Source of the DNA: Escherichia phage vB_EcoS_IME347
Length of the DNA stretch: 50,048 nt
Strand: one strand, 5' to 3'
Sequence record: MH051918
In this document: positions 1 through 49,880 of the stretch, in pieces
How the letters are laid out: each line of letters opens with the position of its first letter
How positions within the stretch are numbered: the stretch's first letter is position 1
Position numbers and translations under genes: made by a program
The notes under the pieces: generated by a model
What the model was told of the DNA's origin: nothing
What the model saw: the letters and a program-made list of their open reading frames with translations, nothing else
Database searches by the model: none

Positions 1-450
1 CCTACCGACTTTTCCGTTTTTAGCAAAAAGTGCTATCGTGACAAGATTACATTGACTCGCTGTATATCACTGTCTACAATTTCCCGGATTTGTCGGCGTG
101 ACAAAATTACACCTCGCGCCCCTGAGAGTGAGATTACATAACTCTATGATATATATAATAATAATAGTTAAATTTTATCTTTTATATACATAAAATATTG
201 TATTGTCATTGTGGCGTATAGGGTGTACACAATGTATATCTCAGATTTCGTGAAAATGATAATTCATGGACATTTATACAGTACTCTATTTGCATATGCT
301 TATATAGGGAAAACACAGTGACATTGTATACAGTGTGTACACCGCAAAAAAATGCGCCGCGAGCCATTGTAAACGCTGGATTCTTATGTCAACATAGCCA
401 CTTATTGACGCCCCGATACGGGCATAGACACTGTAACTAAGGAGCACGTT
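1..450. promoter_or_regulatory. AT-rich divergent early control region A with operator-like inverted repeats
   Basis: No long ORF; AT-rich; copies of a GTGAC-N10-GTCAC-like 20-bp element at 37-56 and 95-113; a 40-bp block at 313-355 is nearly repeated in region B (31423-31465); lies immediately upstream of the first early ORF. Confidence 0.5.
17..37 (-). promoter_or_regulatory. intergenic motif copy (reverse variant) at the window start
   Basis: TTTTAGCAAAAAGTGCTATC; reverse complement matches the AATAGCACTTTTTGCTAAAA variant. Confidence 0.4.
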
Positions 451-9537: not shown

Positions 9538-9561
9538 AAACCCGCCTCGGCGGGTTTTTTT
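9538..9561 (+). terminator. intrinsic terminator ending the early gene array
   Basis: GC stem cccgcc-tcg-gcggg followed by a T7 run. Confidence 0.7.
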
Positions 9562-9579
9562 ACGTCTGGAGTATGATAA

Positions 9580-9598
9580 AATAGCACGAAATGTTAAA
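9580..9598 (+). promoter_or_regulatory. intergenic motif copy (AATAGCACGAAATGTTAAA) upstream of terS
   Basis: Motif variant between the terminator and the RBS GGAGG at 9604-9608. Confidence 0.45.
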
Positions 9599-9614
9599 CA
9601 TCGGAGGACGTTTT

Positions 9615-10139
9615 ATGGAACGGAAAGAGAAAGCGCCCGTAGTGCAGGGCGGTAATTTTAAGGAGCTATACCGAAAGAAATTCGGAACGATTATCGGAAA
9701 ATCAGCCAGCTTCACGCCTGAACAGGTTTTCGATCTGGCGGTGAAGTATTTCACGTGGGCGGAGGACAACGCAATTAAAGCCTCTGAGACAGCGAGTTTT
9801 CAGGGTGAAGTGGAGGAGTCACTCGTTCATAAACCGCGCGTGTTTACTCACAACGGCTTCCGCCTGTTCCTTGGGATCAGCGAGTCGGCGGTCACGAAGT
9901 GGCGGCGACAGGAAGATTTCGCAGAGGTGATGGAGTTCGTTGATACGGTAATCAGCGAGCAGAAATTCCAGCTTGCAGCTAACGGCGTGATTAATGCCTC
10001 GTTCATCGGGAAAGACTTGGGGATCGACAAGCCAGCGACAATCAACATCGACAACCAAGCGAACGCCACGGCGGGCGCGATCGCCTCCACTGAGTCCGCG
10101 ATGCGCGATGCGGTAGAGAGTATTCTGGATAACCTTTAA
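9615..10139 (+). CDS. terS: terminase small subunit (putative)
   Basis: ATG at 9615 with GGAGG RBS; lies immediately upstream of the large terminase gene; HTH-like segment. Confidence 0.55.
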   Translation: MERKEKAPVVQGGNFKELYRKKFGTIIGKSASFTPEQVFDLAVKYFTWAEDNAIKASETASFQGEVEESLVHKPRVFTHNGFRLFLGISESAVTKWRRQEDFAEVMEFVDTVISEQKFQLAANGVINASFIGKDLGIDKPATINIDNQANATAGAIASTESAMRDAVESILDNL

Positions 10140-10172
10140 TCTTCGGGCGGTTCGCCGCCCTTTGGAGTTTTC

Positions 10173-11744
10173 ATGTTAGTGTGGGAAGAACTGGACGCAA
10201 CGCAAAAGCTTGCGATCAAGAAAATGAGCGAGGCAAGTTTCGAAAAGATGATTCGGATCTGGTTTCAGCTTATTCAGGCGCAGCAATTTAAACCTAACTG
10301 GCATCACCTTTACCTTTGTCACGAGGTGGAGGAAATCATCGCCGGGCGGCGCGGGAATACGATCTTCAACGTAACGCCGGGTTCCGGTAAAACCGAAGTG
10401 TTTTCGATTCACCTCCCTGTGTACGCGATGCTTCGCGTGAACAAGATCCGAAACCTGAACGTGTCGTTTGCCGATAGTCTCGTCAAGCGTAACAGCAAGC
10501 GAGTGCGAGAAATCATCGCATCGAAAGAGTTCCAAGAGTTATGGCCTTGCGGGTTCGCCACGTCCAAAGATGATGAAATTCAGGTTCTCAATCAGGCTGG
10601 CAAGGTGTGGTTCGAACTGATATCCAAGGCGGCTGGCGGACAAATTACGGGTTCTCGTGGTGGCTACATGAGCGACGGATTCTCCGGGATGGTGATGCTT
10701 GACGATATCGACAAGCCGGACGATATGTTTTCCAAGGTCAAGCGAGAGCGTACACACACGCTCCTGAAGAATACAATCCGAAGCCGAAGGATGCACAACG
10801 AAACGCCGATTATCGCCATACAGCAGCGCCTACACGCGCAGGATTCGACGTGGTTCATGATGTCGGGCGGAATGGGGATAGACTTCGAACAGATCTCAAT
10901 CCCGGCTCTCGTTACTGAGGAATACGGGCAATCGCTTCCTGAATGGTTACGCCCTCACTTCGAGAAGGATGTTCTCTCGTCCGAGTATGTGATGATAGAC
11001 GGAGTGAAGCATTACAGCTTCTGGCCTGACAAGGAATCTGTTCACGATCTGATTGCATTGCGAGAGGCAGACCAGTACACGTTCGACTCGCAGTACCAGC
11101 AGCGCCCGATCGCGCTTGGTGGCTCCGTGTTTAACTCGGAGTGGTGGACGTACTACGGAAACAGCCTTGAGGCTGACGAACCAGATCCCGGCAAGTTTGA
11201 CTATCGTTTCATTACGGCTGATACCGCTCAGAAAACAGGTGAGCTTAATGACTACACTGTATTCTGTCTTTGGGGTAAGAAAAACGATAAGGTGTACTTT
11301 ATCGACGGGGTTCGCGGAAAGTGGAAAGCGCCGGAAATGGAGACTCAGTTTAAATCATTCGTTAGCACGGCATGGCGTCACAATAAGTCGATGGGCGTAC
11401 TCAGAAAAATCTACGTGGAGGATAAAGCGAGCGGGACGGGCTTGATTCAGAATCTGGAGAAGAAAACTCCCGTCCCGATCACGCCATTGCAGCGAAATAA
11501 GGATAAGGTTACTCGCGCGATGGATGCGCAGCCAGTAATCAAGGCCGGGCGCGTTGTTCTGCCTGAATCGCATCCTATGCTTTCCGAAATCATCACGGAG
11601 CATAGCGCATTCACATACGACGACACGCACCCTCACGACGATATTGTCGATAACTTCATGGATGCGGCAAACATCGAACTTCTGACGATAGACGATCCTA
11701 TCGAACGAATGAAACGCCTTGCGGGAATGGCAAAGCGCAAGTAA
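10173..11744 (+). CDS. terL: terminase large subunit
   Basis: Walker A TPGSGKTE and acidic Walker B-like LDDIDKPDD in the N-terminal half, with a C-terminal nuclease-like half; 523 aa. Confidence 0.85.
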   Translation: MLVWEELDATQKLAIKKMSEASFEKMIRIWFQLIQAQQFKPNWHHLYLCHEVEEIIAGRRGNTIFNVTPGSGKTEVFSIHLPVYAMLRVNKIRNLNVSFADSLVKRNSKRVREIIASKEFQELWPCGFATSKDDEIQVLNQAGKVWFELISKAAGGQITGSRGGYMSDGFSGMVMLDDIDKPDDMFSKVKRERTHTLLKNTIRSRRMHNETPIIAIQQRLHAQDSTWFMMSGGMGIDFEQISIPALVTEEYGQSLPEWLRPHFEKDVLSSEYVMIDGVKHYSFWPDKESVHDLIALREADQYTFDSQYQQRPIALGGSVFNSEWWTYYGNSLEADEPDPGKFDYRFITADTAQKTGELNDYTVFCLWGKKNDKVYFIDGVRGKWKAPEMETQFKSFVSTAWRHNKSMGVLRKIYVEDKASGTGLIQNLEKKTPVPITPLQRNKDKVTRAMDAQPVIKAGRVVLPESHPMLSEIITEHSAFTYDDTHPHDDIVDNFMDAANIELLTIDDPIERMKRLAGMAKRK

Positions 11745-19843: not shown

Positions 19844-19868
19844 GGGGGCGCTTGCGCTCCCTTTTTTG
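19844..19868 (+). terminator. intrinsic terminator after the major tail gene
   Basis: GC stem gggggcgc-ttgc-gcgctccc followed by a T6 run; an extended -10-like TGTAGAAT lies just downstream. Confidence 0.6.
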
Positions 19869-19948
19869 TTTCTGTAGAATCACTGTATCAAATCAATACG
19901 GCGCTGTTTTAACAAAAAGTGCTATCACACCAATCAGGAGAAATGACA

Positions 19949-20580: not shown

Positions 20581-20584
20581 CAAG

Positions 20585-20606
20585 CCGCCTTCGGGCGGTT
20601 TTTTTG
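20585..20606 (+). terminator. intrinsic terminator-like hairpin before the tape-measure gene
   Basis: gccgcc-ttc-gggcgg followed by a T7 run, then GGAGGA RBS. Confidence 0.5.
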
Positions 20607-20623
20607 TATCTGGAGGAATAATT

Positions 20624-23533
20624 ATGGTCGATAAAGTAGCGGGCTTGTCGCTTGATGTTGACGTGTCGCAAGTCGATCGCGCGGTGAAGTCCCTGAATCA
20701 ATTCGCCACGGCGAACGATAAGGCTGCGGACGCAACCCACGAGTTTTTGAACCAGACCGAGATTGCGAAGCAGAAGGCGAAGGCACACGCAAGCGAGCTT
20801 GCGAAACAGTCTCGCGAGTATGCATCAATCCAAAAGGCGATTGACCCGACGATCAGCAAAATGAACCAGCTTCGTGATACAGCGAAGTCCCTTGATTCTC
20901 TGTGGCAAAAGGGATTCATCCCGGACGATGAATTTTTCCGGCTGAGTGCAATCCTTGAGCAGCAGGAAAACGCGCTGAATAAGAATAAGCTTGCACTGAC
21001 TGAAGAGGGCAGGGCGGCGATCGAAGAGGGGAAGGCTAAAGACCGTGCGGCGGCGGCTGGCGACAAGTTCATAAAACAGTTGCAGGAGCAGGCTGCGGCG
21101 GCTGGCAAAACCTCAACGGAAATGCTGGAGCTAAAAGCGGCTCAGTTGGGCGTGTCCCAACAAGCAGCGCCATTCATCGCGCAGCTTAACGCTCAGTCAA
21201 AAGGGATGAAGCTTGCCGGGTTGTCTGCGGGGCAATACTCGCAAGCGATGCGAATGCTTCCGGCTCAGATTACGGACGTGGTGACTTCCCTTGCATCCGG
21301 TATGCCTGTTTGGTTGGTTGCAATCCAGCAGGGCGGGCAGATTAAGGACTCATTCGGCGGGATCGGTAATACGTTCAAGGTTCTGACTTCGTACATTACA
21401 CCGATGCGAATTGCTCTTGCTGGCACGGTTGGAGTTCTGCTCGGACTCGGTAAAGCGGCGTGGGATTCCTACGAGGCGAACAAGGCTCTGTCCGATTCGC
21501 TTATCCTGACTGGTAATTACGCCGGGAAAACTACAGGGGAGATTCGGGAAATGTCTGAGGCGATCGCGGACGGCACTAGCGCTACCGTTTCAACCGTTCG
21601 ACAGATTGCAACCGATTTGGTTAAGTCCGGGAAGTACACTGGCGATCAGATTAAAATCATCACGGCGGCAACTGCTCAGTGGTCTACGGTTACGGGTGAA
21701 TCCGCTGAGGAAGTGACGGGCTATTTCAAGAAGATTGCAGATGATCCGGTTCAAGGTCTTGCGAAGCTTAACGAACAGTTTAACTTCCTTGAAAAAGGTC
21801 AGTTAACCTACATTTCCGGTCTTGAAAAGACTCAAGGGACGACGGCGGCTGTTACTGCGGCGACGAAGCTTTTCGCTGACACGATGGAAACTCGGTTACA
21901 GAAGATTGCGGACTCCGCAACGCCTCTTGAAAAGATGTGGGCGAACATCAAGAAGTGGGCTTCCGACGCTTGGGGTTGGGTTGGAGATCACACTCGTGGC
22001 GCGTTGAACTTGATCATTGACGTTGTAGCCGGGACGGTTGAGCAGGTTCAGCTAATCCTGAACAAAGGCGACATTGTAATCGGTCAATTCATCGTTAGCG
22101 CTACGAAGGCGATGCAGAAAATTCCGGGGATGGGTGATGTTGGCAACGACATTATCAAGAATCAGGAAAAAGTGATTAACGACGCGATCGCCAACAACAA
22201 GGAGCTTGAGAAGTCCATCATTGAGCGTGACAAGCGGATTCGTCAAGGCGAAATGGGTTACATCAACTCCGAAGGGAAGGAAAACTTAGGCAAGAAGTAC
22301 GCCGATGAAACCAAGGAAGCCGTAGAGAAAGAGGCCGAAGCGCTCAAGAAGAAAGGGAAGGCTCAGAAGGTCATTGTAGATCAGGGCGACAAGATCACGG
22401 AGCAGTACAACGCCGATATCATCGCGCTACAGTCTCAGTTGGAAGTCCTGAAAGAGCACAAGACGATTAACGACTCAATTAGCCAGCAGCGCAAGACGCT
22501 ATGGAACGAGCAAGCGAAAGTTAAGGTTCTGGAGGAGGCTGCAACTCAGCGTGTACTGACGAAGGAAGAGAAATCCTATCTCGCCAACAAGGATAAAATC
22601 CTCGCGCTGGCTGAACAGAAAGCAATTCTCGGTGATCAGATTGTTGCTCAGCAGAAGCTTAACGCCCTGCAAGACGAGTCAACAAAGTACGTACTGAAGA
22701 TGGAGGCGCAGTCGAAATCAATTCGCGAAACGTCCGGCCTCGGTGATATCGCTGCGAAGCGACAAAGGGAACTGGATGAACTGAAGGCGTCATGGCAGGG
22801 CAAAGGCGGAAGTGAAGATGATCCGGCATTGCAGAAGATGATTGAAGCCCGGCAGAAAGTCTACGCCGATGAAGATGCGCAGCGTCAAGATTGGCTGGCT
22901 GGAGCGGAGGCGGCGTTTAACAACTACGGCGAAGCGGCAACCAACATGTATGACAATGTTGGTCAGGTTGCAAGCGAGGCGTTAAACGGAATGTCCACGA
23001 TGATGGCAGATTTTCTCATGACCGGGAAGGCCAACTTCGGAGACTTCGCGAAGAGCATTATCAGCATGATCATTAACATGATCACGAAGATGGTTCTGTT
23101 TAACTCAATCGCTGGCCTGATGGGTGGAAATACGTGGAGTTTTGCAGGTGGCATGGGTGGATTCGCTAACGGCGGTTACACTGGCGACGGCGGGAAGTAC
23201 GAACCTAAAGGCGTTGTTCACGGCGGTGAATTCGTATTCACCAAAGAGGCGACGAGCCGGATCGGGGTTGGAAACCTGACTAAGCTGATGCGCGGCTACG
23301 CTAACGGCGGCTCGGTTGGTAATGCCTCTCGCGGCACGGGGTTAACCCTTTCATCTTCATCCGGTCAGGGAACCTACGTCGATGTTAGCGGGATGAAGGT
23401 TGACGTTAATAACGGAAATGACCCTCGCGGCATGGAGCATGGGATCCGAATGATTTTCAACGAAATGATTAACGACGCTTGCTCTCAGGGTGGTAAAGTG
23501 TACAACTATATCAATGAGAAAACGGGAGGTTAA
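20624..23533 (+). CDS. tail tape measure protein
   Basis: 969-aa ORF, largely Ala/Lys/Glu/Gln-rich predicted coiled coil, with a Gly-rich C-terminal region (GGMGGFANGGYTGDGG). Confidence 0.85.
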   Translation: MVDKVAGLSLDVDVSQVDRAVKSLNQFATANDKAADATHEFLNQTEIAKQKAKAHASELAKQSREYASIQKAIDPTISKMNQLRDTAKSLDSLWQKGFIPDDEFFRLSAILEQQENALNKNKLALTEEGRAAIEEGKAKDRAAAAGDKFIKQLQEQAAAAGKTSTEMLELKAAQLGVSQQAAPFIAQLNAQSKGMKLAGLSAGQYSQAMRMLPAQITDVVTSLASGMPVWLVAIQQGGQIKDSFGGIGNTFKVLTSYITPMRIALAGTVGVLLGLGKAAWDSYEANKALSDSLILTGNYAGKTTGEIREMSEAIADGTSATVSTVRQIATDLVKSGKYTGDQIKIITAATAQWSTVTGESAEEVTGYFKKIADDPVQGLAKLNEQFNFLEKGQLTYISGLEKTQGTTAAVTAATKLFADTMETRLQKIADSATPLEKMWANIKKWASDAWGWVGDHTRGALNLIIDVVAGTVEQVQLILNKGDIVIGQFIVSATKAMQKIPGMGDVGNDIIKNQEKVINDAIANNKELEKSIIERDKRIRQGEMGYINSEGKENLGKKYADETKEAVEKEAEALKKKGKAQKVIVDQGDKITEQYNADIIALQSQLEVLKEHKTINDSISQQRKTLWNEQAKVKVLEEAATQRVLTKEEKSYLANKDKILALAEQKAILGDQIVAQQKLNALQDESTKYVLKMEAQSKSIRETSGLGDIAAKRQRELDELKASWQGKGGSEDDPALQKMIEARQKVYADEDAQRQDWLAGAEAAFNNYGEAATNMYDNVGQVASEALNGMSTMMADFLMTGKANFGDFAKSIISMIINMITKMVLFNSIAGLMGGNTWSFAGGMGGFANGGYTGDGGKYEPKGVVHGGEFVFTKEATSRIGVGNLTKLMRGYANGGSVGNASRGTGLTLSSSSGQGTYVDVSGMKVDVNNGNDPRGMEHGIRMIFNEMINDACSQGGKVYNYINEKTGG

Positions 23534-23893: not shown

Positions 23894-23920
23894 AAAGCCC
23901 GCCTTGCGCGGGTTTTTTTA
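23894..23920 (+). terminator. intrinsic terminator (cccgccttgcgcggg + T run), twin of 26029-26053
   Basis: GC hairpin followed by a T8 run; the same 22-bp sequence recurs at 26029; an extended -10-like CTGTAGAAT follows. Confidence 0.6.
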
Positions 23921-23962
23921 TAGCTGTAGAATAGATGAACATTTATAGAGGAGGTCAGGAAA

Positions 23963-26028: not shown

Positions 26029-26053
26029 GACCCGCCTTGCGCGGGTTTTTTTT
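26029..26053 (+). terminator. intrinsic terminator (twin of 23894-23920) followed by TGTATAAT
   Basis: Identical cccgccttgcgcggg hairpin plus T run; extended -10-like TGTATAAT at 26058-26065; motif copy at 26079-26099. Confidence 0.6.
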
Positions 26054-26101
26054 CGCCTGTATAATGGCATCACCGATAAATAGCACAAAAGGTTAAACAT
26101 C

Positions 26102-31096: not shown

Positions 31097-31609
31097 AGCA
31101 TTTTCCTCCCAAAATTAATGAATACACATATTAGCTTTTTGCCCTCGGGGAGTCAAAGTTACAGATTTTGCGGTGTAACATCTGTCTACTTTTGTAACCA
31201 AAATGAGGCGTGACAAAATTCGCTCATTTTTTAATCAGCATGACGCACCTTAAGATATAGAAAACTCCTTATAATATATATAGATAGATATAAATTGTTA
31301 TTTTACCTTTTATATATAAATTAGAGGTGTAACCGTTGTATATATTGTCACGGTGTATTTTGTGATGCGCTCAATTTTCTACATCATAATCATGTGAATT
31401 CTGTATTGCGGTATTTTTCTATAAACACAGTTACATTGTATACAGTGGTTACGCCGCAATAAAACACGCCTCAAACGCTTGATATTTATGGACTCGCATT
31501 GTCACGGGTAATTTTGTGACGCCCGAATACACTCATTGACATCGTTACAGGTTGACTAAATGCCGGGAATGGTTATACTGTCCACATCATCAACGAAGGA
31601 GATAAACGA
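31097..31609. promoter_or_regulatory. AT-rich divergent control region B with operator-like inverted repeats
   Basis: 513-bp non-coding region; GTCAC-N10-GTGAC-type elements at 31207-31223, 31345-31370 and 31498-31524; conserved block at 31423-31465 shared with region A. Confidence 0.5.
31552..31579 (+). promoter_or_regulatory. sigma70-like promoter (TTGACT-N16-TATACT) for the recombination operon
   Basis: TTGACT at 31552-31557 and TATACT at 31574-31579, 16-nt spacer, about 30 nt upstream of the RBS of ORF 31610. Confidence 0.5.
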
Positions 31610-36845: not shown

Positions 36846-36900
36846 CGCGTAACAGGAGTTTACCCGCTACGCGCTTTTGTGTTTTAGCTATTTGTGCTCT
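36846..36900 (-). promoter_or_regulatory. hairpin plus reverse-orientation motif copy at the end of the HTH gene
   Basis: On the - strand: motif GAGCACAAATAGCTAAAA (36883-36900, overlapping the stop of gene 36884..37327) followed by stem cgcgta..tacgcg and a T run. Confidence 0.45.
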
Positions 36901-37327
36901 CGACTTCATCCTTTCGAACTACGCGCATGAACTTGCGGTTCTTGCATCGTTTTTCAAGGCACTTTCCGTTAGAGTCGAACTTGAGATCGAATCGCAGCCA
37001 GCTTGCGCGATACCCGGTACAACCCTGACGACGATACGCGCGATGCGCCGCCTCCGCTCCCTGCCAAGAAATCATGCCGCGAACTTTCCATTCGTTCACA
37101 TTCTGATTTGTTACCTTCAGGGCTTTCGCCGTGGCGGAGGGGGAGCCGTAGAATTCGATCAGGGCGTCAAGTCTGGCGCGTAGTCCGGCGCGAACCTCAT
37201 CTTTCAGGATGTAGAATCCGCATCGCTTGCGAGGCTTTACATCTTTGCCCCGTCGTGTACCATTGTTCCCGTTCAGGTGACGACGATCGATTTCCCCGGT
37301 TGATTCTGCAATACGCTTGATTGTCAT
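36884..37327 (-). CDS. HTH-domain protein (YdaS/Cro-like), putative regulator
   Basis: Central segment GSPSATAKALKVTNQNVNEWKVRGMIS resembles a YdaS/Cro-type helix-turn-helix; divergent from the helicase gene. Confidence 0.4.
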   Translation of the reverse strand: MTIKRIAESTGEIDRRHLNGNNGTRRGKDVKPRKRCGFYILKDEVRAGLRARLDALIEFYGSPSATAKALKVTNQNVNEWKVRGMISWQGAEAAHRAYRRQGCTGYRASWLRFDLKFDSNGKCLEKRCKNRKFMRVVRKDEVESTNS

Positions 37328-37420: not shown

Positions 37421-39472
37421 GTGAAAATCACCCAAGAGACACGAGAGTATTTCCGCACTCAAAACATTAAAAAACAGATCGCAATGCTCGGGGAGGATTA
37501 CATCCGACGCACTCAGGAGCGCTTCCGGGTTGGCGATATCACCCCTTACGAATATCAGGTTGCGGCATACTTTGAGATCGCGAAGCGACTCGGGAAAGAG
37601 TACGAACATCCATTTTACGTAAAAGCCTCAGTATCTGCGGGCAAGACGATTATCTTCGCGATGGTGGCGAAACAATGTCAGGCGATGGGGCTGAAAATGC
37701 TCGTTCTCGCTCGTCAAGGTGAGATTGTGGATCAGGACAGTGAGGAGATTGACAACTTCGGAGTTCCGAATTCCATCTTCTCCGCATCGCTCGGAATCAA
37801 GTCCTGCCACTTCCCGATCGTGGTTGGCTCCGAAGGTACTGTAGGCAATGGCCTGTTCAATGAGTTATCCGATTTTGTCCCGCACGTAATCGGGATCGAT
37901 GAATGTCACCAAGTCGATTGGGAGGACGTGGCGAAGGCGATCGAAGGCAAAGAGTCCTATGCGCAAATGACCACGGATAAGGGATCTATCGTAATGGACG
38001 GCGATATTCCTCTGATTGGTGATGATGGATTGCCAGTTACCGGAACGAAGCGTTCTCAGTACACCGTAATCATCGTCGAAATGATGCGCCGTTGCCGGGA
38101 GAGATACGGGCATGAGTTGCGCGTGTTTGGCATGACGGGATCGGAGTATCGCGGCGTCGTTCCAATTCTCGTTGAGAACAAAAAGCTCGTTGGCTTCTGG
38201 CGTGAGCAGGTGACGAACATTGACACGAACTACCTGATTGAGTTCGGCTCAGTTGTCCCAACCGTGTTTGGCTCAACCGAGGGGGTTCATTACGATCTCG
38301 ACAAGTTCAAGGCGAGCGCCGAAGATGGTGTGTCGGACTTCTCAGAGAAAGAAATGAAGGCGATGGAGGCCGAAATCGTCAAGGATAAATCCTTGACCGA
38401 GAAGATTATGAAGATGGTTGCGAAGGAGGCGGAGAAGCGCAACGCCGTGCTTATCACCTGCGCCGGGCAGCGCCATTGCAAAGAAGCTGCGGCGGCATTG
38501 CCGCCGGGAAGCACTTACGCGATCATTACGGACAAGACAAGCCCGAAAGCACGACAGAAGATTTTGGACGACGTTCGCGCCGGGAAAATCAAGTACACCT
38601 TTCAGGTAATGGCGTTAACGACGGGCGTAAACGTTCCGAATTGGGACTTCTCCGTTATCCTACGCAAGATCGGCTCGCTGACATTGCTGATTCAGCTTTT
38701 AGGGCGCGGAATGCGACTGCTGAAGAAATGGCAAATTGAGCAGGGAATGGTTAAGACTGACCATCTTGTATGGGACTTCGCCGGAACTATGGACGAGTTG
38801 GGGCAGCTTTATTTCGATCCAATTTTGGAACAAGCTCAATATCAGCGCCGTTTCGAAAACGGGAAAGACCCGAAGAAATGCGAATTATGCGGTCACGAAA
38901 ACAGCTTCTATGCGCGTCGTTGCGTGAACGTTATCAACGGCCAGCGCTGTGAGCACTTCTGGACATATCAGACCTGTGAAGATCAGGTAGACGAGAAAAC
39001 AAACAAGGTTCTCGTTAAGGGCTGCGGGGCGAAAAACGACGTGGTAGCGCGTGTTTGCCGTTGCTGTGACGTATCGCTTGTCGATCCTAACCTGAAGTTA
39101 TCCGGCAAGGCGTACACGAAAAACGATTGGTACGACGTGAAACACTTCGAAGTTAAGTTGACGAAAAACCAAAAGGGGATAATATTCCATTACGTCCTTG
39201 ATAATGGCGAGGGTGAATTTAATGCATACGAAAAATTCTTCCCGGAGTCCGATGCGAAAGTGTGCGGGACGCTGTGGAAAACGAAAGGTGTATTGCCGCA
39301 CGTATTCGATCCGAAGATGCGCAAATACTTCATTGGGATGAAGAAAGCAATCAAGATCCTGCAATACGCACACCACATTAAAGCGCCTGTTAGAGTCACT
39401 CACCGCCGCAACGCGAAGAAAGAGGACTTAATCAGCCGCAAAGATTTCGGAATGGAGGAAATTCCAGAATGA
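37421..39472 (+). CDS. superfamily II DNA helicase (DExH-box)
   Basis: Walker A VSAGKTIIF and DExH motif GIDECHQ; C-terminal Cys-rich zinc-finger-like region; GTG start as in the track. Confidence 0.75.
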   Translation: MKITQETREYFRTQNIKKQIAMLGEDYIRRTQERFRVGDITPYEYQVAAYFEIAKRLGKEYEHPFYVKASVSAGKTIIFAMVAKQCQAMGLKMLVLARQGEIVDQDSEEIDNFGVPNSIFSASLGIKSCHFPIVVGSEGTVGNGLFNELSDFVPHVIGIDECHQVDWEDVAKAIEGKESYAQMTTDKGSIVMDGDIPLIGDDGLPVTGTKRSQYTVIIVEMMRRCRERYGHELRVFGMTGSEYRGVVPILVENKKLVGFWREQVTNIDTNYLIEFGSVVPTVFGSTEGVHYDLDKFKASAEDGVSDFSEKEMKAMEAEIVKDKSLTEKIMKMVAKEAEKRNAVLITCAGQRHCKEAAAALPPGSTYAIITDKTSPKARQKILDDVRAGKIKYTFQVMALTTGVNVPNWDFSVILRKIGSLTLLIQLLGRGMRLLKKWQIEQGMVKTDHLVWDFAGTMDELGQLYFDPILEQAQYQRRFENGKDPKKCELCGHENSFYARRCVNVINGQRCEHFWTYQTCEDQVDEKTNKVLVKGCGAKNDVVARVCRCCDVSLVDPNLKLSGKAYTKNDWYDVKHFEVKLTKNQKGIIFHYVLDNGEGEFNAYEKFFPESDAKVCGTLWKTKGVLPHVFDPKMRKYFIGMKKAIKILQYAHHIKAPVRVTHRRNAKKEDLISRKDFGMEEIPE

Positions 39473-39894
39473 TTACAGATAAGGGCGATTATTTAGAGTT
39501 TTACGAGCGCGACCCGAGCGACACGAGAAAGGAGGTAGTTCACCAAATTGAGAGCACTTCCTTTTTGAAAGTTCGACACCCTGACTTGCTGTTTTGGCAT
39601 AGTGTCAACGAGAACGAGAAGAGCAAGGCGACCGCAATGATTGATCAGCAATCCGGCTTATTGAAGGGAGTTAGTGACTTCGTTTTCCTGATTGGTTTCA
39701 ATCACCGATACCCGTTCGCCGCAATCGAACTTAAGCGCGTGAATAAGTCCGGCAAAGGCAAGGCGTCACCCGTAAGCGATGAACAGAAAGCCTTCTTGCG
39801 GAAGGTCAGGGAGCGAGGCGGGTTCGCCGCAGTAGCCTACGGGGTGGAGCAGTTAAAACTCGCAGTAGCTGAAATGCTCAAACAGCACGAATAG
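39469..39894 (+). CDS. VRR-NUC domain nuclease
   Basis: 141 aa; GVSDFV...AIELKRVN...EQKAF pattern typical of VRR-NUC; ATGA overlap with the helicase gene. Confidence 0.6.
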   Translation: MITDKGDYLEFYERDPSDTRKEVVHQIESTSFLKVRHPDLLFWHSVNENEKSKATAMIDQQSGLLKGVSDFVFLIGFNHRYPFAAIELKRVNKSGKGKASPVSDEQKAFLRKVRERGGFAAVAYGVEQLKLAVAEMLKQHE

Positions 39895-39954: not shown

Positions 39955-40668
39955 ATGAAAGATATCGAAGATATTTCAACGATCGACTTTGCGGAAACTG
40001 GATGTTCATTTACTCGCGAAGCGCTGGCGGTTTCCGGGTATTATTCAGCGGTTAAAACTCCAACCTGCAAAGAAATCTCAGGCCGCAGATACAAGGGAAC
40101 CAATACGCCGGACGCCGTTCGCGATCTGTGGAGCACTTCTCGCGAGGTCATTGCGTACATGGAAGGCAGATATGGGAAATATGATCTTGACGCTGCGGCG
40201 AGCGAAGATAATAAGGTCTGTGAGAAATTCTACTCACAGGAAACTAACTGCCTAAAAAGATGGTGGGGCAAGAACAAGCACGTTTGGCTGAATCCGCCAT
40301 ACAGCCGCCCGGACGCCTTCGTTAAAAAGGCTATTGAGCAAATGGAGCACGGAAACCAAATTGACATGCTTCTGCCCGCCGATAATTCTACGGCATGGTT
40401 TACTGAGGCTCGCCGTAACGCTGCGGAAATCATCTGGATTGAAGGCGATCTTTATCAGGATCTTGACGGTACGGAATACTCCCGTTCAGGACGTTTGGCC
40501 TTCATTTCTGGTGAAACCGGAAAGCCAGTTGACGGCAACAATAAAGGCTCTGTTATCTTTATCATGCGCCAACTCGCGGAAGGTGAGAAGCAGAAAACCC
40601 ACTATGTCAGCATTGCGGATATTTGCCCGTCCGTTAAAAACAAACGCGCAAGAGCGAGGAATATCTAA
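39955..40668 (+). CDS. dam: DNA N6-adenine methyltransferase (phage Dam-type)
   Basis: Catalytic NPPY motif (WLNPPYS); 237 aa; follows replication genes as in T1-like phages. Confidence 0.75.
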   Translation: MKDIEDISTIDFAETGCSFTREALAVSGYYSAVKTPTCKEISGRRYKGTNTPDAVRDLWSTSREVIAYMEGRYGKYDLDAAASEDNKVCEKFYSQETNCLKRWWGKNKHVWLNPPYSRPDAFVKKAIEQMEHGNQIDMLLPADNSTAWFTEARRNAAEIIWIEGDLYQDLDGTEYSRSGRLAFISGETGKPVDGNNKGSVIFIMRQLAEGEKQKTHYVSIADICPSVKNKRARARNI

Positions 40669-41438: not shown

Positions 41439-41737
41439 CTTTGACGGCTACCCGATCGTTGAGTTCGAAGGGGAGAAATATCGGGAGATTCCATTCTCTG
41501 ATTGGTTGCCTTCGGATTTCGAAACAGTTCCATGCAGCAGGGGGGGCGGTCTTATCCCGATGTGGTATAGCCCGGCTCGAAACCTTATGGTGTTTGATAA
41601 CGGCTGCGGAATGAAACCCTCCGATCTCAAAGTCTGGTTGAGGAAACTGTAGAATGTTCGGTTACTTTGGTGTAGTATTCACCCCCGTAATAGCTTTCAC
41701 TCTCATTTATTTAATTGTAATGTAAGGAATTAGAAAT

Positions 41738-42877
41738 ATGTCAATGTCAAAAATCACAACCGAACAGCTTATCGAAGAGCGCGAAAACGGCCTGACCCTT
41801 CGCGAGATCGCGGAGAAGTACGGGATGCATATCCGCACGGTTGAGGCTCGACACGCGAAGCTTGCAAAGGAAGGTCACTTCCACGGCAACAAGCACGTAG
41901 CCGCCAACGTTCCGACCGGGTTCGCCGTAAAAGGTACGTCCGTCATGATTGACGCCGAAGGCAACGAAAAGGTTCGCTGGGTTAAGACCGATCAGGACAA
42001 AGAGAAGATTTACCAACTCATGCAAGCGGCGCAGGTTGCATTTTGCGAAGAGTTGCCGCGCGAAGCCCCAACCCCGATCGAAATAAACAAGCGATTCGAC
42101 GAGGATTCGCTGGCGCTTTACCCGGTATTCGATCTTCATATCGGCGCACTGGCGCACAAGCACGAGTCCGGCGAGAACTACTCCACCGATATCGCGGAAG
42201 ATGTTCTGAACAAGTATTTCGGCTATGCAGTCGGCAAGGCTCCTAACGCACAAAAAGCCGTCCTGTTAATCGGCGGTGACTTCCTGCACTCTGACGGCCT
42301 TGACGCTGTTACCCCGGCAAGCGGTCATGTTCTGGATCAGGACTCGCGTTATGCCAAACTGGTTTACGTCGCAATCCGCGCTACTCGCCGGGCGATCGCT
42401 AAGATGCTGGAGAAACATGCTGAGGTTGAGGTTCAGATTATCGAAGGCAACCACGATCAGGCAGGTATGATTTGGCTACGCGCTGCAATGGCGGCATACT
42501 ACGAGGACGAGCCGCGCGTGAACGTTGACGTTAGCCCGATGATTCTGCACAAAACCCGTTGGGGCAAAACGCTGTTAGGCTACACTCACGGTCACACGAT
42601 GAAGAAAGCGGACACTCGCCTTGCAGCAATGGCGGCAGACTTCCGCGATGATTTCGGCGCGAGCAAGTACGTTTACACTCACAGCGGTCATTGGCATCAC
42701 CAGACGATCACCGAGCATACGTTGGGTATCGACGAGGTTCACGGTCAACTCGGGGCGAAGGATGCTTATGCGGCTCGCGGCGGCTGGCGAGCGTACCGTC
42801 AAGCGGCTGTTATCGTGTACTCAAAAGAGTTTGGCGAGATCGGGCGCTTTATCTACCGTCCAGAAATGACGGCGTAA
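41738..42877 (+). CDS. HTH-fused calcineurin-like metallophosphoesterase
   Basis: N-terminal HTH-like LTLREIAEKYGMHIRTV; phosphoesterase motifs DLHIG, GGDFLHSD, GNHD, GHTH/GHWH in canonical order; RBS AAGGAA. Confidence 0.65.
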   Translation: MSMSKITTEQLIEERENGLTLREIAEKYGMHIRTVEARHAKLAKEGHFHGNKHVAANVPTGFAVKGTSVMIDAEGNEKVRWVKTDQDKEKIYQLMQAAQVAFCEELPREAPTPIEINKRFDEDSLALYPVFDLHIGALAHKHESGENYSTDIAEDVLNKYFGYAVGKAPNAQKAVLLIGGDFLHSDGLDAVTPASGHVLDQDSRYAKLVYVAIRATRRAIAKMLEKHAEVEVQIIEGNHDQAGMIWLRAAMAAYYEDEPRVNVDVSPMILHKTRWGKTLLGYTHGHTMKKADTRLAAMAADFRDDFGASKYVYTHSGHWHHQTITEHTLGIDEVHGQLGAKDAYAARGGWRAYRQAAVIVYSKEFGEIGRFIYRPEMTA

Positions 42878-42896
42878 ATAGCACAAATAGCTAAAG
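42876..42896 (+). promoter_or_regulatory. intergenic motif copy (AAATAGCACAAATAGCTAAAG) with hairpin + TTATAGT
   Basis: Motif overlaps stop TAA; followed by inverted repeat ggggtaacg..gttacccc. Confidence 0.45.
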
Positions 42897-42951
42897 ACAA
42901 ATCAGGGGTAACGAGTTATAGTTACCCCACACAAACAAAGGAGATTTAGCA

Positions 42952-43069: not shown

Positions 43070-43246
43070 ATGACTCGTGTAAAGTGCATTCGCAATGATT
43101 CCAAATCGCTCCCGTTCCAAGTGAACCAGATCTACTCTGTGGGCTACCATCACGGCGGCGGGATTTACGAGATCTACGACGGGCAAGGCTCTGCAATCCA
43201 AGCGCCTCTGAACGGATTCTATCTCGAATTCATTGCCGTAAAATAA
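43070..43246 (+). CDS. small hypothetical protein (58 aa)
   Basis: ATG at 43070; followed by an intrinsic terminator; N-terminal motif related to ORF 4726 and 7442. Confidence 0.3.
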   Translation: MTRVKCIRNDSKSLPFQVNQIYSVGYHHGGGIYEIYDGQGSAIQAPLNGFYLEFIAVK

Positions 43247-49860: not shown

Positions 49861-49880
49861 GTTTAGCAAAAAGTGCTATT
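49861..49880 (-). promoter_or_regulatory. intergenic motif copy (reverse variant) at the head of the leftward array
   Basis: On the - strand: AATAGCACTTTTTGCTAAAC, upstream of gene 49516..49794. Confidence 0.45.

Follow-up and report, generated by a model that had tools for sequence, protein, structure and literature searches.

Phage T5 reportedly cannot digest the host chromosome without its protein A1, a predicted metallophosphatase that works alongside the DNA-binding protein A2, and A1 is also reported to be sufficient for this digestion (preprint 10.64898/2026.04.02.716235). Phosphodiesterase activity was shown for a mycobacteriophage metallophosphoesterase (MPE) of the A10ZJ24 gp48 / Bxb1 gp47 type, which damages host genomic DNA (PMC12287305). 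In the Drexlerviridae, a core module of exonuclease, holin, endolysin and spanin genes was found in 508 of 522 phages (PMC13164509, 2026). Here we describe a gene of Escherichia phage vB_EcoS_IME347 (record MH051918), located at 41738..42877 on the plus strand and encoding a 379-amino-acid (aa) protein in which a helix-turn-helix (HTH) is followed by a metallophosphoesterase domain. The whole stretch of DNA analysed, 50,048 nucleotides (nt) long and called the window below, is the essentially complete genome of a T1-like (Drexlerviridae) phage; its nearest deposited relatives are BrunoManser, SRT8 and IME-JL8 at ~78-80% nucleotide identity. An earlier reading made from the letters of the window (the sequence-only reading) had called the product an HTH-fused calcineurin-like metallophosphoesterase, and the predicted fold and the invariant active-site residues agree with this. 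On balance, we favour the view that the gene product is a DNA-tethered two-metal phosphodiesterase which acts as a DNA nuclease in phage DNA metabolism.

Protein architecture and conserved active site

The coding sequence (stop codon included) starts with ATG, and a Shine-Dalgarno sequence, AAGGA, was read at 41724..41728 on the same strand, 9 nt 5' of the ATG. The gene is defined by its open reading frame (ORF) and translation, by its match to PHROG 704 and by the same place in SRT8 (gp76) and HazelMika (gene 38). All the metallophosphoesterase motifs named in the sequence-only reading were found in the 379-aa ORF, in the order and at the places given there.

Conservation was determined from an alignment of 136 diverse homologues (30-68% identity). 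Motif I, D132-L-H134-I-G136 (DxHxG; 42131..42145, plus strand as for all motifs of the protein), contains predicted metal ligands (D132 100%, H134 99%, G136 99%). Motif II, G179-G-D181-F-L-H184-S-D186 (GDxxH; 42272..42295), contains the putative bridging aspartate and a histidine of the Mre11 type (G180 and D181 100%, H184 97%, D186 90%). Motif III is G237-N238-H239-D240 (GNHD; 42446..42457), with N238 and H239 invariant. Motif IV, G281-Y-T-H284-G-H286, is located at 42578..42595 (H284 invariant, G285 99%), and motifs V/VI, G317-H318-W-H320-H321 (GHxH), at 42686..42700 (G317 99%, H318 96%, H320 invariant). Seven residues, D132, G180, D181, N238, H239, H284 and H320, do not vary over the whole alignment, and at least 90% of the homologues keep H134, H184, D240 and H318. 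By our own reading, eight conserved positions, ranging from at least 96% to invariant, would be the metal and catalytic residues of the Mre11 type. Since these putative catalytic positions are nearly invariant, selection appears to maintain the enzyme as a working catalyst. Between motifs II and III lies a family-specific loop, T192-P-A-S-G-H-V-L-D200-Q-D202-S-R204 (42311..42349; T192 99%, L199 95%, D200 98%, D202 90%, R204 96%), for which no counterpart was recognised among known families. Judged from its conservation, this loop is a candidate substrate-binding element.

An AlphaFold2 model built from the same alignment was confident, with a mean predicted local distance difference test (pLDDT) of 93.1 and a predicted template-modelling score (pTM) of 0.82. 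In the model, HTH helices at residues 8-44 are followed by a flexible linker of lower confidence, a hairpin with a helix, a second linker and the catalytic domain. The N-terminal HTH module covers residues about 5-45 (41750..41872, plus strand), with helices at 8-16, 21-27 and 32-44 (pLDDT 94-96). The middle element, residues about 58-105 (41909..42052, plus strand), consists of a beta-hairpin (62-71, 77-86) and a helix (88-105), is family-specific and is conserved (G75 93%, W81 96%, K83 83%). Its length is constant at ~61 aa, and it is kept where the match to the query starts only at residue 58-64, for example in Vibrio and Rhodobacter phages. The calcineurin-like catalytic domain covers residues 121-379 (42098..42874, plus strand), and the protein stops at the core fold, without a capping domain. 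As the sequence-only reading required of a structure prediction, the motifs fall within a phosphoesterase fold. The Pfam model PF00149 scored the query at 14.6 bits, under its cut-off of 21.5; some homologues exceed the cut-off (P0160, 25.1 bits), and E values below 0.01 were obtained for 26 of 120. It seems that PF00149 simply models this divergent branch poorly.

An N-terminal helix-turn-helix is the family norm

The HTH-like segment proposed at the N-terminus in the sequence-only reading is borne out by the three predicted helices, by HTH matches in Pfam across the family and by a profile match of the GerE type. For the query itself the Pfam matches were below threshold (HTH_23 at residues 13-36, 17.9 bits against a cut-off of 24.6; also Sigma70_r4_2 and HTH_24), and the family profile matched GerE with an E value of 0.019. 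When 120 homologues were scanned, LysR-type modules were found in 29, Fis-type in 17, HTH_50 in 16, sigma-70 region 4 in 12, HTH_23 in 11 and GerE in 7, while Metallophos was matched in 26. In nearly all 136 representatives an N-terminal region of 50-120 aa precedes the ~61-aa middle element and a catalytic domain of ~260 aa; longer members of the family carry two HTH or winged-HTH modules.

The fusion had been regarded as unusual. This view did not hold: the N-terminal module is present in nearly all the representatives, the full-length architecture occurs in about 1,900 phage records, and the unrelated T5 A1 family is built alike. A DNA-binding module so constant is the strongest argument for DNA as the substrate.

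Family distribution and matches to known proteins

The protein matched PHROG 704, "DNA repair exonuclease", over its full length (E 2e-154; residues 4-378 against positions 2-389 of the 390-position profile), and a second match was PHROG 284, "exonuclease". The label "DNA repair exonuclease" appears to be a homology-based family label. Using tblastn, 2063 phage records were found, 1920 of them with at least 80% of the protein covered, and a search of 1.84 billion representative proteins gave 4718 clusters (50% identity) at E <= 1e-3; a chance ORF is thereby excluded. The homologue in IME-JL8 is 88.6% identical in amino acids, and the nearest metagenomic protein, encoded on a 50,094-bp contig, is 96% identical. 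Plasmid records gave six matches, of which the better ones are phage-sized (44-50 kb) records deposited as plasmids; the family looks largely phage-restricted. No dedicated Pfam model for the family was found when the query and the 120 homologues were scanned. Depositors have labelled its members in conflicting ways, as DNA repair exonuclease, phosphoesterase, transcriptional regulator, oxidoreductase or winged-HTH protein. In the literature, genome-announcement annotations and a statement in the KanT1 pangenome work were all that turned up on the family, and papers on a transposon-mutagenesis screen, on Metis and on PUA-Cal-HAD dealt with neither T1-like phages nor this gene.

When the family profile was compared with the PDB, the phosphoesterase matches were confined to Mre11/SbcD and "nuclease MPE" (E 0.14-0.66). 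In the profile alignment, motifs I (DxHxG) and II (GDxxH) of the query stand opposite SDWHLG and GDLLHS of Thermotoga Mre11. A PDB search with the single sequence gave only spurious thioesterase matches (E 0.17), which were discarded. The best fold matches of the model are exo- and endonucleases, and protein phosphatase 5 scores only about 9. Three activities had been offered in the sequence-only reading: a nuclease of the Mre11/SbcD class, a protein phosphatase, or a phosphodiesterase acting on nucleotide messengers. The first fits best as a class of activity, but orthology to Mre11/SbcD itself fails: the PDB matches of the family profile were not significant (E 0.14-0.63), no Pfam family for Mre11 or SbcD was matched by the query, nor was one present among the 25 families shown for the 120 homologues.

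Genomic setting and gene neighbourhoods

The gene had been placed downstream of replication genes, and its 5' side does contain a helicase (37421-39472), a VRR-NUC-like endonuclease (39469-39894), a Dam methylase (39955-40668) and four small ORFs. On its 3' side are a 58-aa ORF (43070-43246, plus strand; phrog_4788, E 2e-32) and then the holin, endolysin and spanin genes. By position, the 58-aa ORF is the counterpart of a stand-alone SH3 protein (DUF7244), which 188 of 522 phages encode and which has been described among the shell components of the lysis modules of Drexlerviridae (PMC13164509). Helicases, primase, Exo VIII and Erf are among the larger non-structural ORFs of the phage.

In Drexlerviridae without the small SH3 gene, the exonuclease is most often followed by polynucleotide kinase and deoxynucleoside monophosphate (dNMP) kinase genes (PMC13164509), and these two are also neighbours of the homologue in Yersinia phage 646. 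The homologue of Campylobacter phage F355 is accompanied by a DNA ligase, directly upstream, and a Holliday-junction resolvase. A PIF1-like helicase and a 5'-3' exonuclease lie beside the homologue on a T4-like metagenomic contig, and an OB-fold protein is a neighbour in a Vibrio phage. In Dhillonvirus the homologue is directly upstream of the small and large terminase subunits, and in PEAT2 it is one gene away from them; in Jerseyvirus it adjoins an HNH endonuclease within the tail block, and in Rhodobacter phage RcWata it is placed after the lysis genes. No constant partner gene was found across nine phage contexts and three metagenomic contigs. The neighbours vary by lineage and are mostly DNA-related.

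Proposed function and alternatives

The analysis establishes the gene, its architecture and fold, the conservation of the active site and the distribution of the family; how metals act in catalysis, that DNA is the substrate and what the window protein does for the phage we infer as follows. By analogy with the superfamily, D132, H134, D181, N238, H284, H318 and H320 would hold two metal ions, probably Mn2+, that activate water against a phosphodiester bond, and H239 of GNHD would stabilise the transition state. H184 of GDxxH may correspond to the histidine of Thermotoga Mre11 GDLLHS, with which it aligns. The HTH would provide the affinity for duplex DNA that Mre11/SbcD gets from Rad50/SbcC. 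Two roles can be proposed for such a nuclease and seem about equally likely to us. It may break down the host chromosome for nucleotide salvage, as a functional analogue of T5 A1; the linkage to dNMP kinase and the T5 analogy favour this role. Alternatively, it may trim ends, hairpins and branched intermediates in recombination-dependent replication together with Exo VIII, Erf, single-stranded DNA-binding protein (SSB), VRR-NUC and helicases; the presence of the first four in the same phage and the neighbouring ligase and resolvase genes favour that one.

A stronger form of the first role, in which the HTH-phosphoesterase is the host-chromosome-destroying nuclease of T1-type phages and feeds dNMPs to salvage, is possible but doubtful. 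The fused HTH would then play the part that, as we speculate, A2 plays beside T5 A1. If dNMPs were fed to salvage, the dNMP kinase and polynucleotide kinase genes found after the gene in many relatives would be accounted for. If this form were true, the enzyme would set the amount of host DNA surviving for generalized transduction, and a single family of more than 4,700 clusters (50% identity) would serve siphophages in general as a "host genome demolition" module.

Several points weigh against a DNA nuclease. A literature search gave no biochemical or genetic data on any member of the family, and the matches to characterised nucleases were all non-significant (E about 0.01-0.6). The window protein has neither a capping domain nor a Rad50-binding region and ends with core strands 356-362 and 366-373 in the AlphaFold2 model; no Rad50 or SbcC was found among the phage ORFs scanned, and none was adjacent to the gene in nine other phage contexts. 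The Mre11 mechanism is therefore not simply transferable. The proposed jobs could be done by the phage's own Exo VIII and VRR-NUC-like nuclease. In addition, the position of the gene is not uniform, and it abuts lysis or terminase genes in several lineages.

Other activities of the catalytic domain were weighed against this proposal. In bacterial Pnkp, a metallophosphoesterase domain does end healing. An end-healing phosphoesterase, which would remove 3'-phosphate or 2',3'-cyclic phosphate ends of broken DNA or RNA together with polynucleotide kinase and ligase, is in keeping with the polynucleotide kinase/3'-phosphatase gene directly downstream in many SH3-less Drexlerviridae (PMC13164509) and in Yersinia phage 646, and with the DNA ligase directly upstream in Campylobacter phage F355. 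We nevertheless consider it unlikely, as neither kinase nor ligase lies beside the gene in the IME347 window, the polynucleotide kinase of Yersinia phage 646 is already annotated with a 3'-phosphatase, and exo- and endonucleases are the best fold matches. It is also quite improbable that the protein hydrolyses second messengers (cyclic di- or oligonucleotides, or cyclic nucleoside monophosphates) as a counter-defence against CBASS, Pycsar, Thoeris or type III CRISPR. A family-wide DNA-binding HTH has no obvious use on soluble nucleotides, and the gene is persistent in the Drexlerviridae (PMC13164509) among DNA-metabolism genes, unlike the variable early anti-defence genes. The nearest structural and sequence relatives are nucleases, and no family among the defence and counter-defence profiles of PADLOC was matched at E <= 1. 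A protein serine/threonine (or tyrosine) phosphatase of the lambda phosphatase type, which belongs to the same superfamily and has the GNHD motif in common, is the least probable of all the explanations considered. The PPP signatures are GDxHG, GDxVDRG and GNHE; GDxHG and GDxVDRG are absent from the window protein, which reads DLHIG and GDFLHSD instead, no PPP family was found in the Pfam and NCBIfam scans, and the HTH points to DNA.

Two further roles were considered. The protein might act chiefly in transcription, as a factor or switch controlling late and lysis genes, with the phosphoesterase as a sensor or accessory, given that its HTH resembles the sigma-70 region 4, LuxR/GerE and LysR types, that the gene is directly upstream of lysis genes or of the terminase/late operon in several lineages, and that some depositors label homologues "transcriptional regulator". 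This is decidedly improbable in our view. The invariant catalytic residues favour a working enzyme, and the phage encodes a separate predicted regulator (phrog_2856, 36884-37327). Moreover, the promoter-like motif repeated in the window (see below) is absent from the Dhillonvirus, Jerseyvirus and PEAT2 loci, where homologues have a similar HTH, and thus no cognate site travels with the gene. HNH proteins have a packaging-accessory role in some cos phages, and the neighbouring terminase subunits of Dhillonvirus and, one gene off, of PEAT2, as well as the HNH endonuclease of Jerseyvirus, might suggest an accessory nuclease that aids terminase in cutting concatemers. Such a role is very unlikely: the terminase genes are located at about 9591-11744, 30 kb from the gene in IME347, and are distant in other Drexlerviridae too, replication and repair genes are the neighbours in other lineages, and no metallophosphoesterase is known to us to act in packaging.

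The family is among the most widespread of the phage enzymes known only from annotation: it occurs in ~2,000 deposited genomes, comprises more than 4,700 clusters (50% identity) and persists throughout the Drexlerviridae. Learning what the enzyme cuts would correct thousands of annotations, and its target would clarify how host and phage DNA are handled in polymerase-less phages such as T1. There is also a bearing on phage therapy, because degradation of host DNA limits generalized transduction.

A repeated promoter-like motif and other repeats

A motif of ~18 nt, ATAGCACGAATTGCTAAA, with the form ATAGCAC-N5-TGCTAAA and the palindromic core TAGC-N7-GCTA, is repeated in the window. The sequence AGCACNNNNNKSTAA occurs in 19 exact copies against 0.30 expected, and 28 copies were found over the whole window when up to four mismatches were allowed. 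On the plus strand, copies start at 969, 1234, 2251, 2585, 2952, 3641, 4651, 5471, 5977, 7174, 7642, 9581, 26080, 32687, 35799, 37341, 39882, 40901 and 42878, and on the minus strand at 49879, 48876, 47684, 47140, 36900, 30128, 19925, 16117 and 36. They are mostly intergenic and oriented with the downstream genes. Most copies are followed ~20 nt on by a -10-like box (TATAGT, CATAAT or TATTAT) beside or within a GC-rich hairpin, and a conserved A(T/C)CGAAACGA-like stretch comes after the box or hairpin. The distance from TTGCTA to the -10-like box is 22 nt, too long for a normal -35 element; by count, the centre of the palindrome is near -42.

One copy is located directly 3' of the phosphoesterase stop codon, outside the protein (42878..42922, plus strand). 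It reads ATAGCACAAATAGCTAAA, followed by a TATAGT box in a GGGGTAAC/GTTACCCC hairpin, and is the probable promoter of the SH3-like gene and the lysis genes. A copy just after the phosphoesterase stop codon was also found in SRT8 and HazelMika. The HTH-phosphoesterase was considered as the reader of the palindrome TAGC-N7-GCTA and rejected for lack of support: the motif is present in SRT8 and HazelMika and absent from Dhillonvirus, Jerseyvirus, PEAT2 and other loci whose homologues have a similar HTH, and the phage encodes a separate predicted regulator. The predicted transcriptional regulator at 36884-37327 (minus strand) is a 147-aa protein (phrog_2856, E 6e-73) whose gene is divergent from the helicase operon, and binding of the repeated palindrome would be ascribed more naturally to this regulator than to the HTH-phosphoesterase. 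The motif may represent a promoter or operator architecture specific to the Drexlerviridae; no relevant mention of it was found in the searchable literature.

Further repeats were observed. A 59-nt sequence with palindrome-rich ACAGTGACATTGTATACAGTGTGTAC is present on the plus strand in two copies, 80% identical and 31 kb apart, with one copy close to the left end of the window (311-369) and the second just upstream of the Exo VIII gene (31423-31481). In the structural-gene region, terminators made of a GC hairpin and a T-run are located at 9540-9574, 19846-19880, 20584-20618, 23898-23932 and 26031-26065 (plus strand), each directly before CTGTAGAAT/CTGTATAAT-like boxes, an arrangement suggestive of terminators and promoters coupled as units within the late operon, of a type distinct from the early/middle motif. 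The genome of Dhillonvirus JLBYU37 contains a 195-nt direct repeat (22570-22764 and 39025-39219; 89% identical, 16 kb apart).

Comparison with known systems

The closest system is the persistent PHROG 704 gene of the Drexlerviridae itself (SRT8 gp76, Rtp61, JMPW2_063). The window gene is its orthologue and is likewise placed between the Dam block and the SH3/holin/endolysin/spanin genes; there is no difference in kind, and at the DNA level the window copy shares ~80% identity with the nearest deposited phages. It is one more orthologue of a known, homology-annotated family and in this respect ordinary, so that for the IME347 window itself nothing new is added beyond this orthologue.

With Mre11/SbcD the window protein has in common the fold of the nuclease domain and its eight metal and catalytic residues, and 184-190 residues align out of the 319-386 residues of the SbcD and Thermotoga Mre11 chains. 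Unlike Mre11/SbcD, it would bind DNA through the fused HTH. DP1, the small subunit of archaeal PolD and a 3'-5' proofreading exonuclease, is 13% identical to the window protein in sequence; the model of the latter has no OB fold, a beta-hairpin and a helix being found instead. No polymerase gene was found among the window ORFs scanned, nor a DP2-type partner as paired in PolD. The best NCBIfam match was PdeM / nuclease MPE (TIGR04123, ligase-associated DNA-damage endonuclease), with 14.9 bits against a cut-off of 150. In bacteria, PdeM / nuclease MPE is linked to a ligase and helicase operon and, to our knowledge, carries no HTH. The mycobacteriophage MPE is a short protein, also without an HTH as far as we know. 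We infer that the proteins related to the window protein form a separate phage-specific family working like the Mre11, DP1 and PdeM nucleases.

Compared with the window protein, T5 A1 is ~180 aa longer and is pre-early, whereas the window gene follows replication genes. Homology between the two beyond the superfamily was considered and rejected, as hhalign reached only a stretch at motif III against the single T5 A1 sequence (16% probability, 19 columns) or the HTH in a profile-profile comparison (24%) and did not align the catalytic domains. No Pfam family was matched by T5 A1 itself or by T5 A2. Many relatives of T5 A1, in contrast, have an N-terminal HTH at residues about 8-45 and then the phosphoesterase domain, the same layout as in the window protein. 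In five of them (P0342, P0344, P0345, P0372 and P0384; about 46-48% identity), a clear HTH (HTH_23, CENP-B_N or HTH_7) at residues about 3-48 replaces the first ~70 residues of A1, and four of the five passed the Pfam cut-off. This hints that the same function in DNA binding is provided in T5 by the N-terminus of A1 itself or by its partner A2. The layout of an HTH plus a phosphoesterase arose, or was kept, in the T5 A1 family, where degradation of DNA has been shown in vivo.

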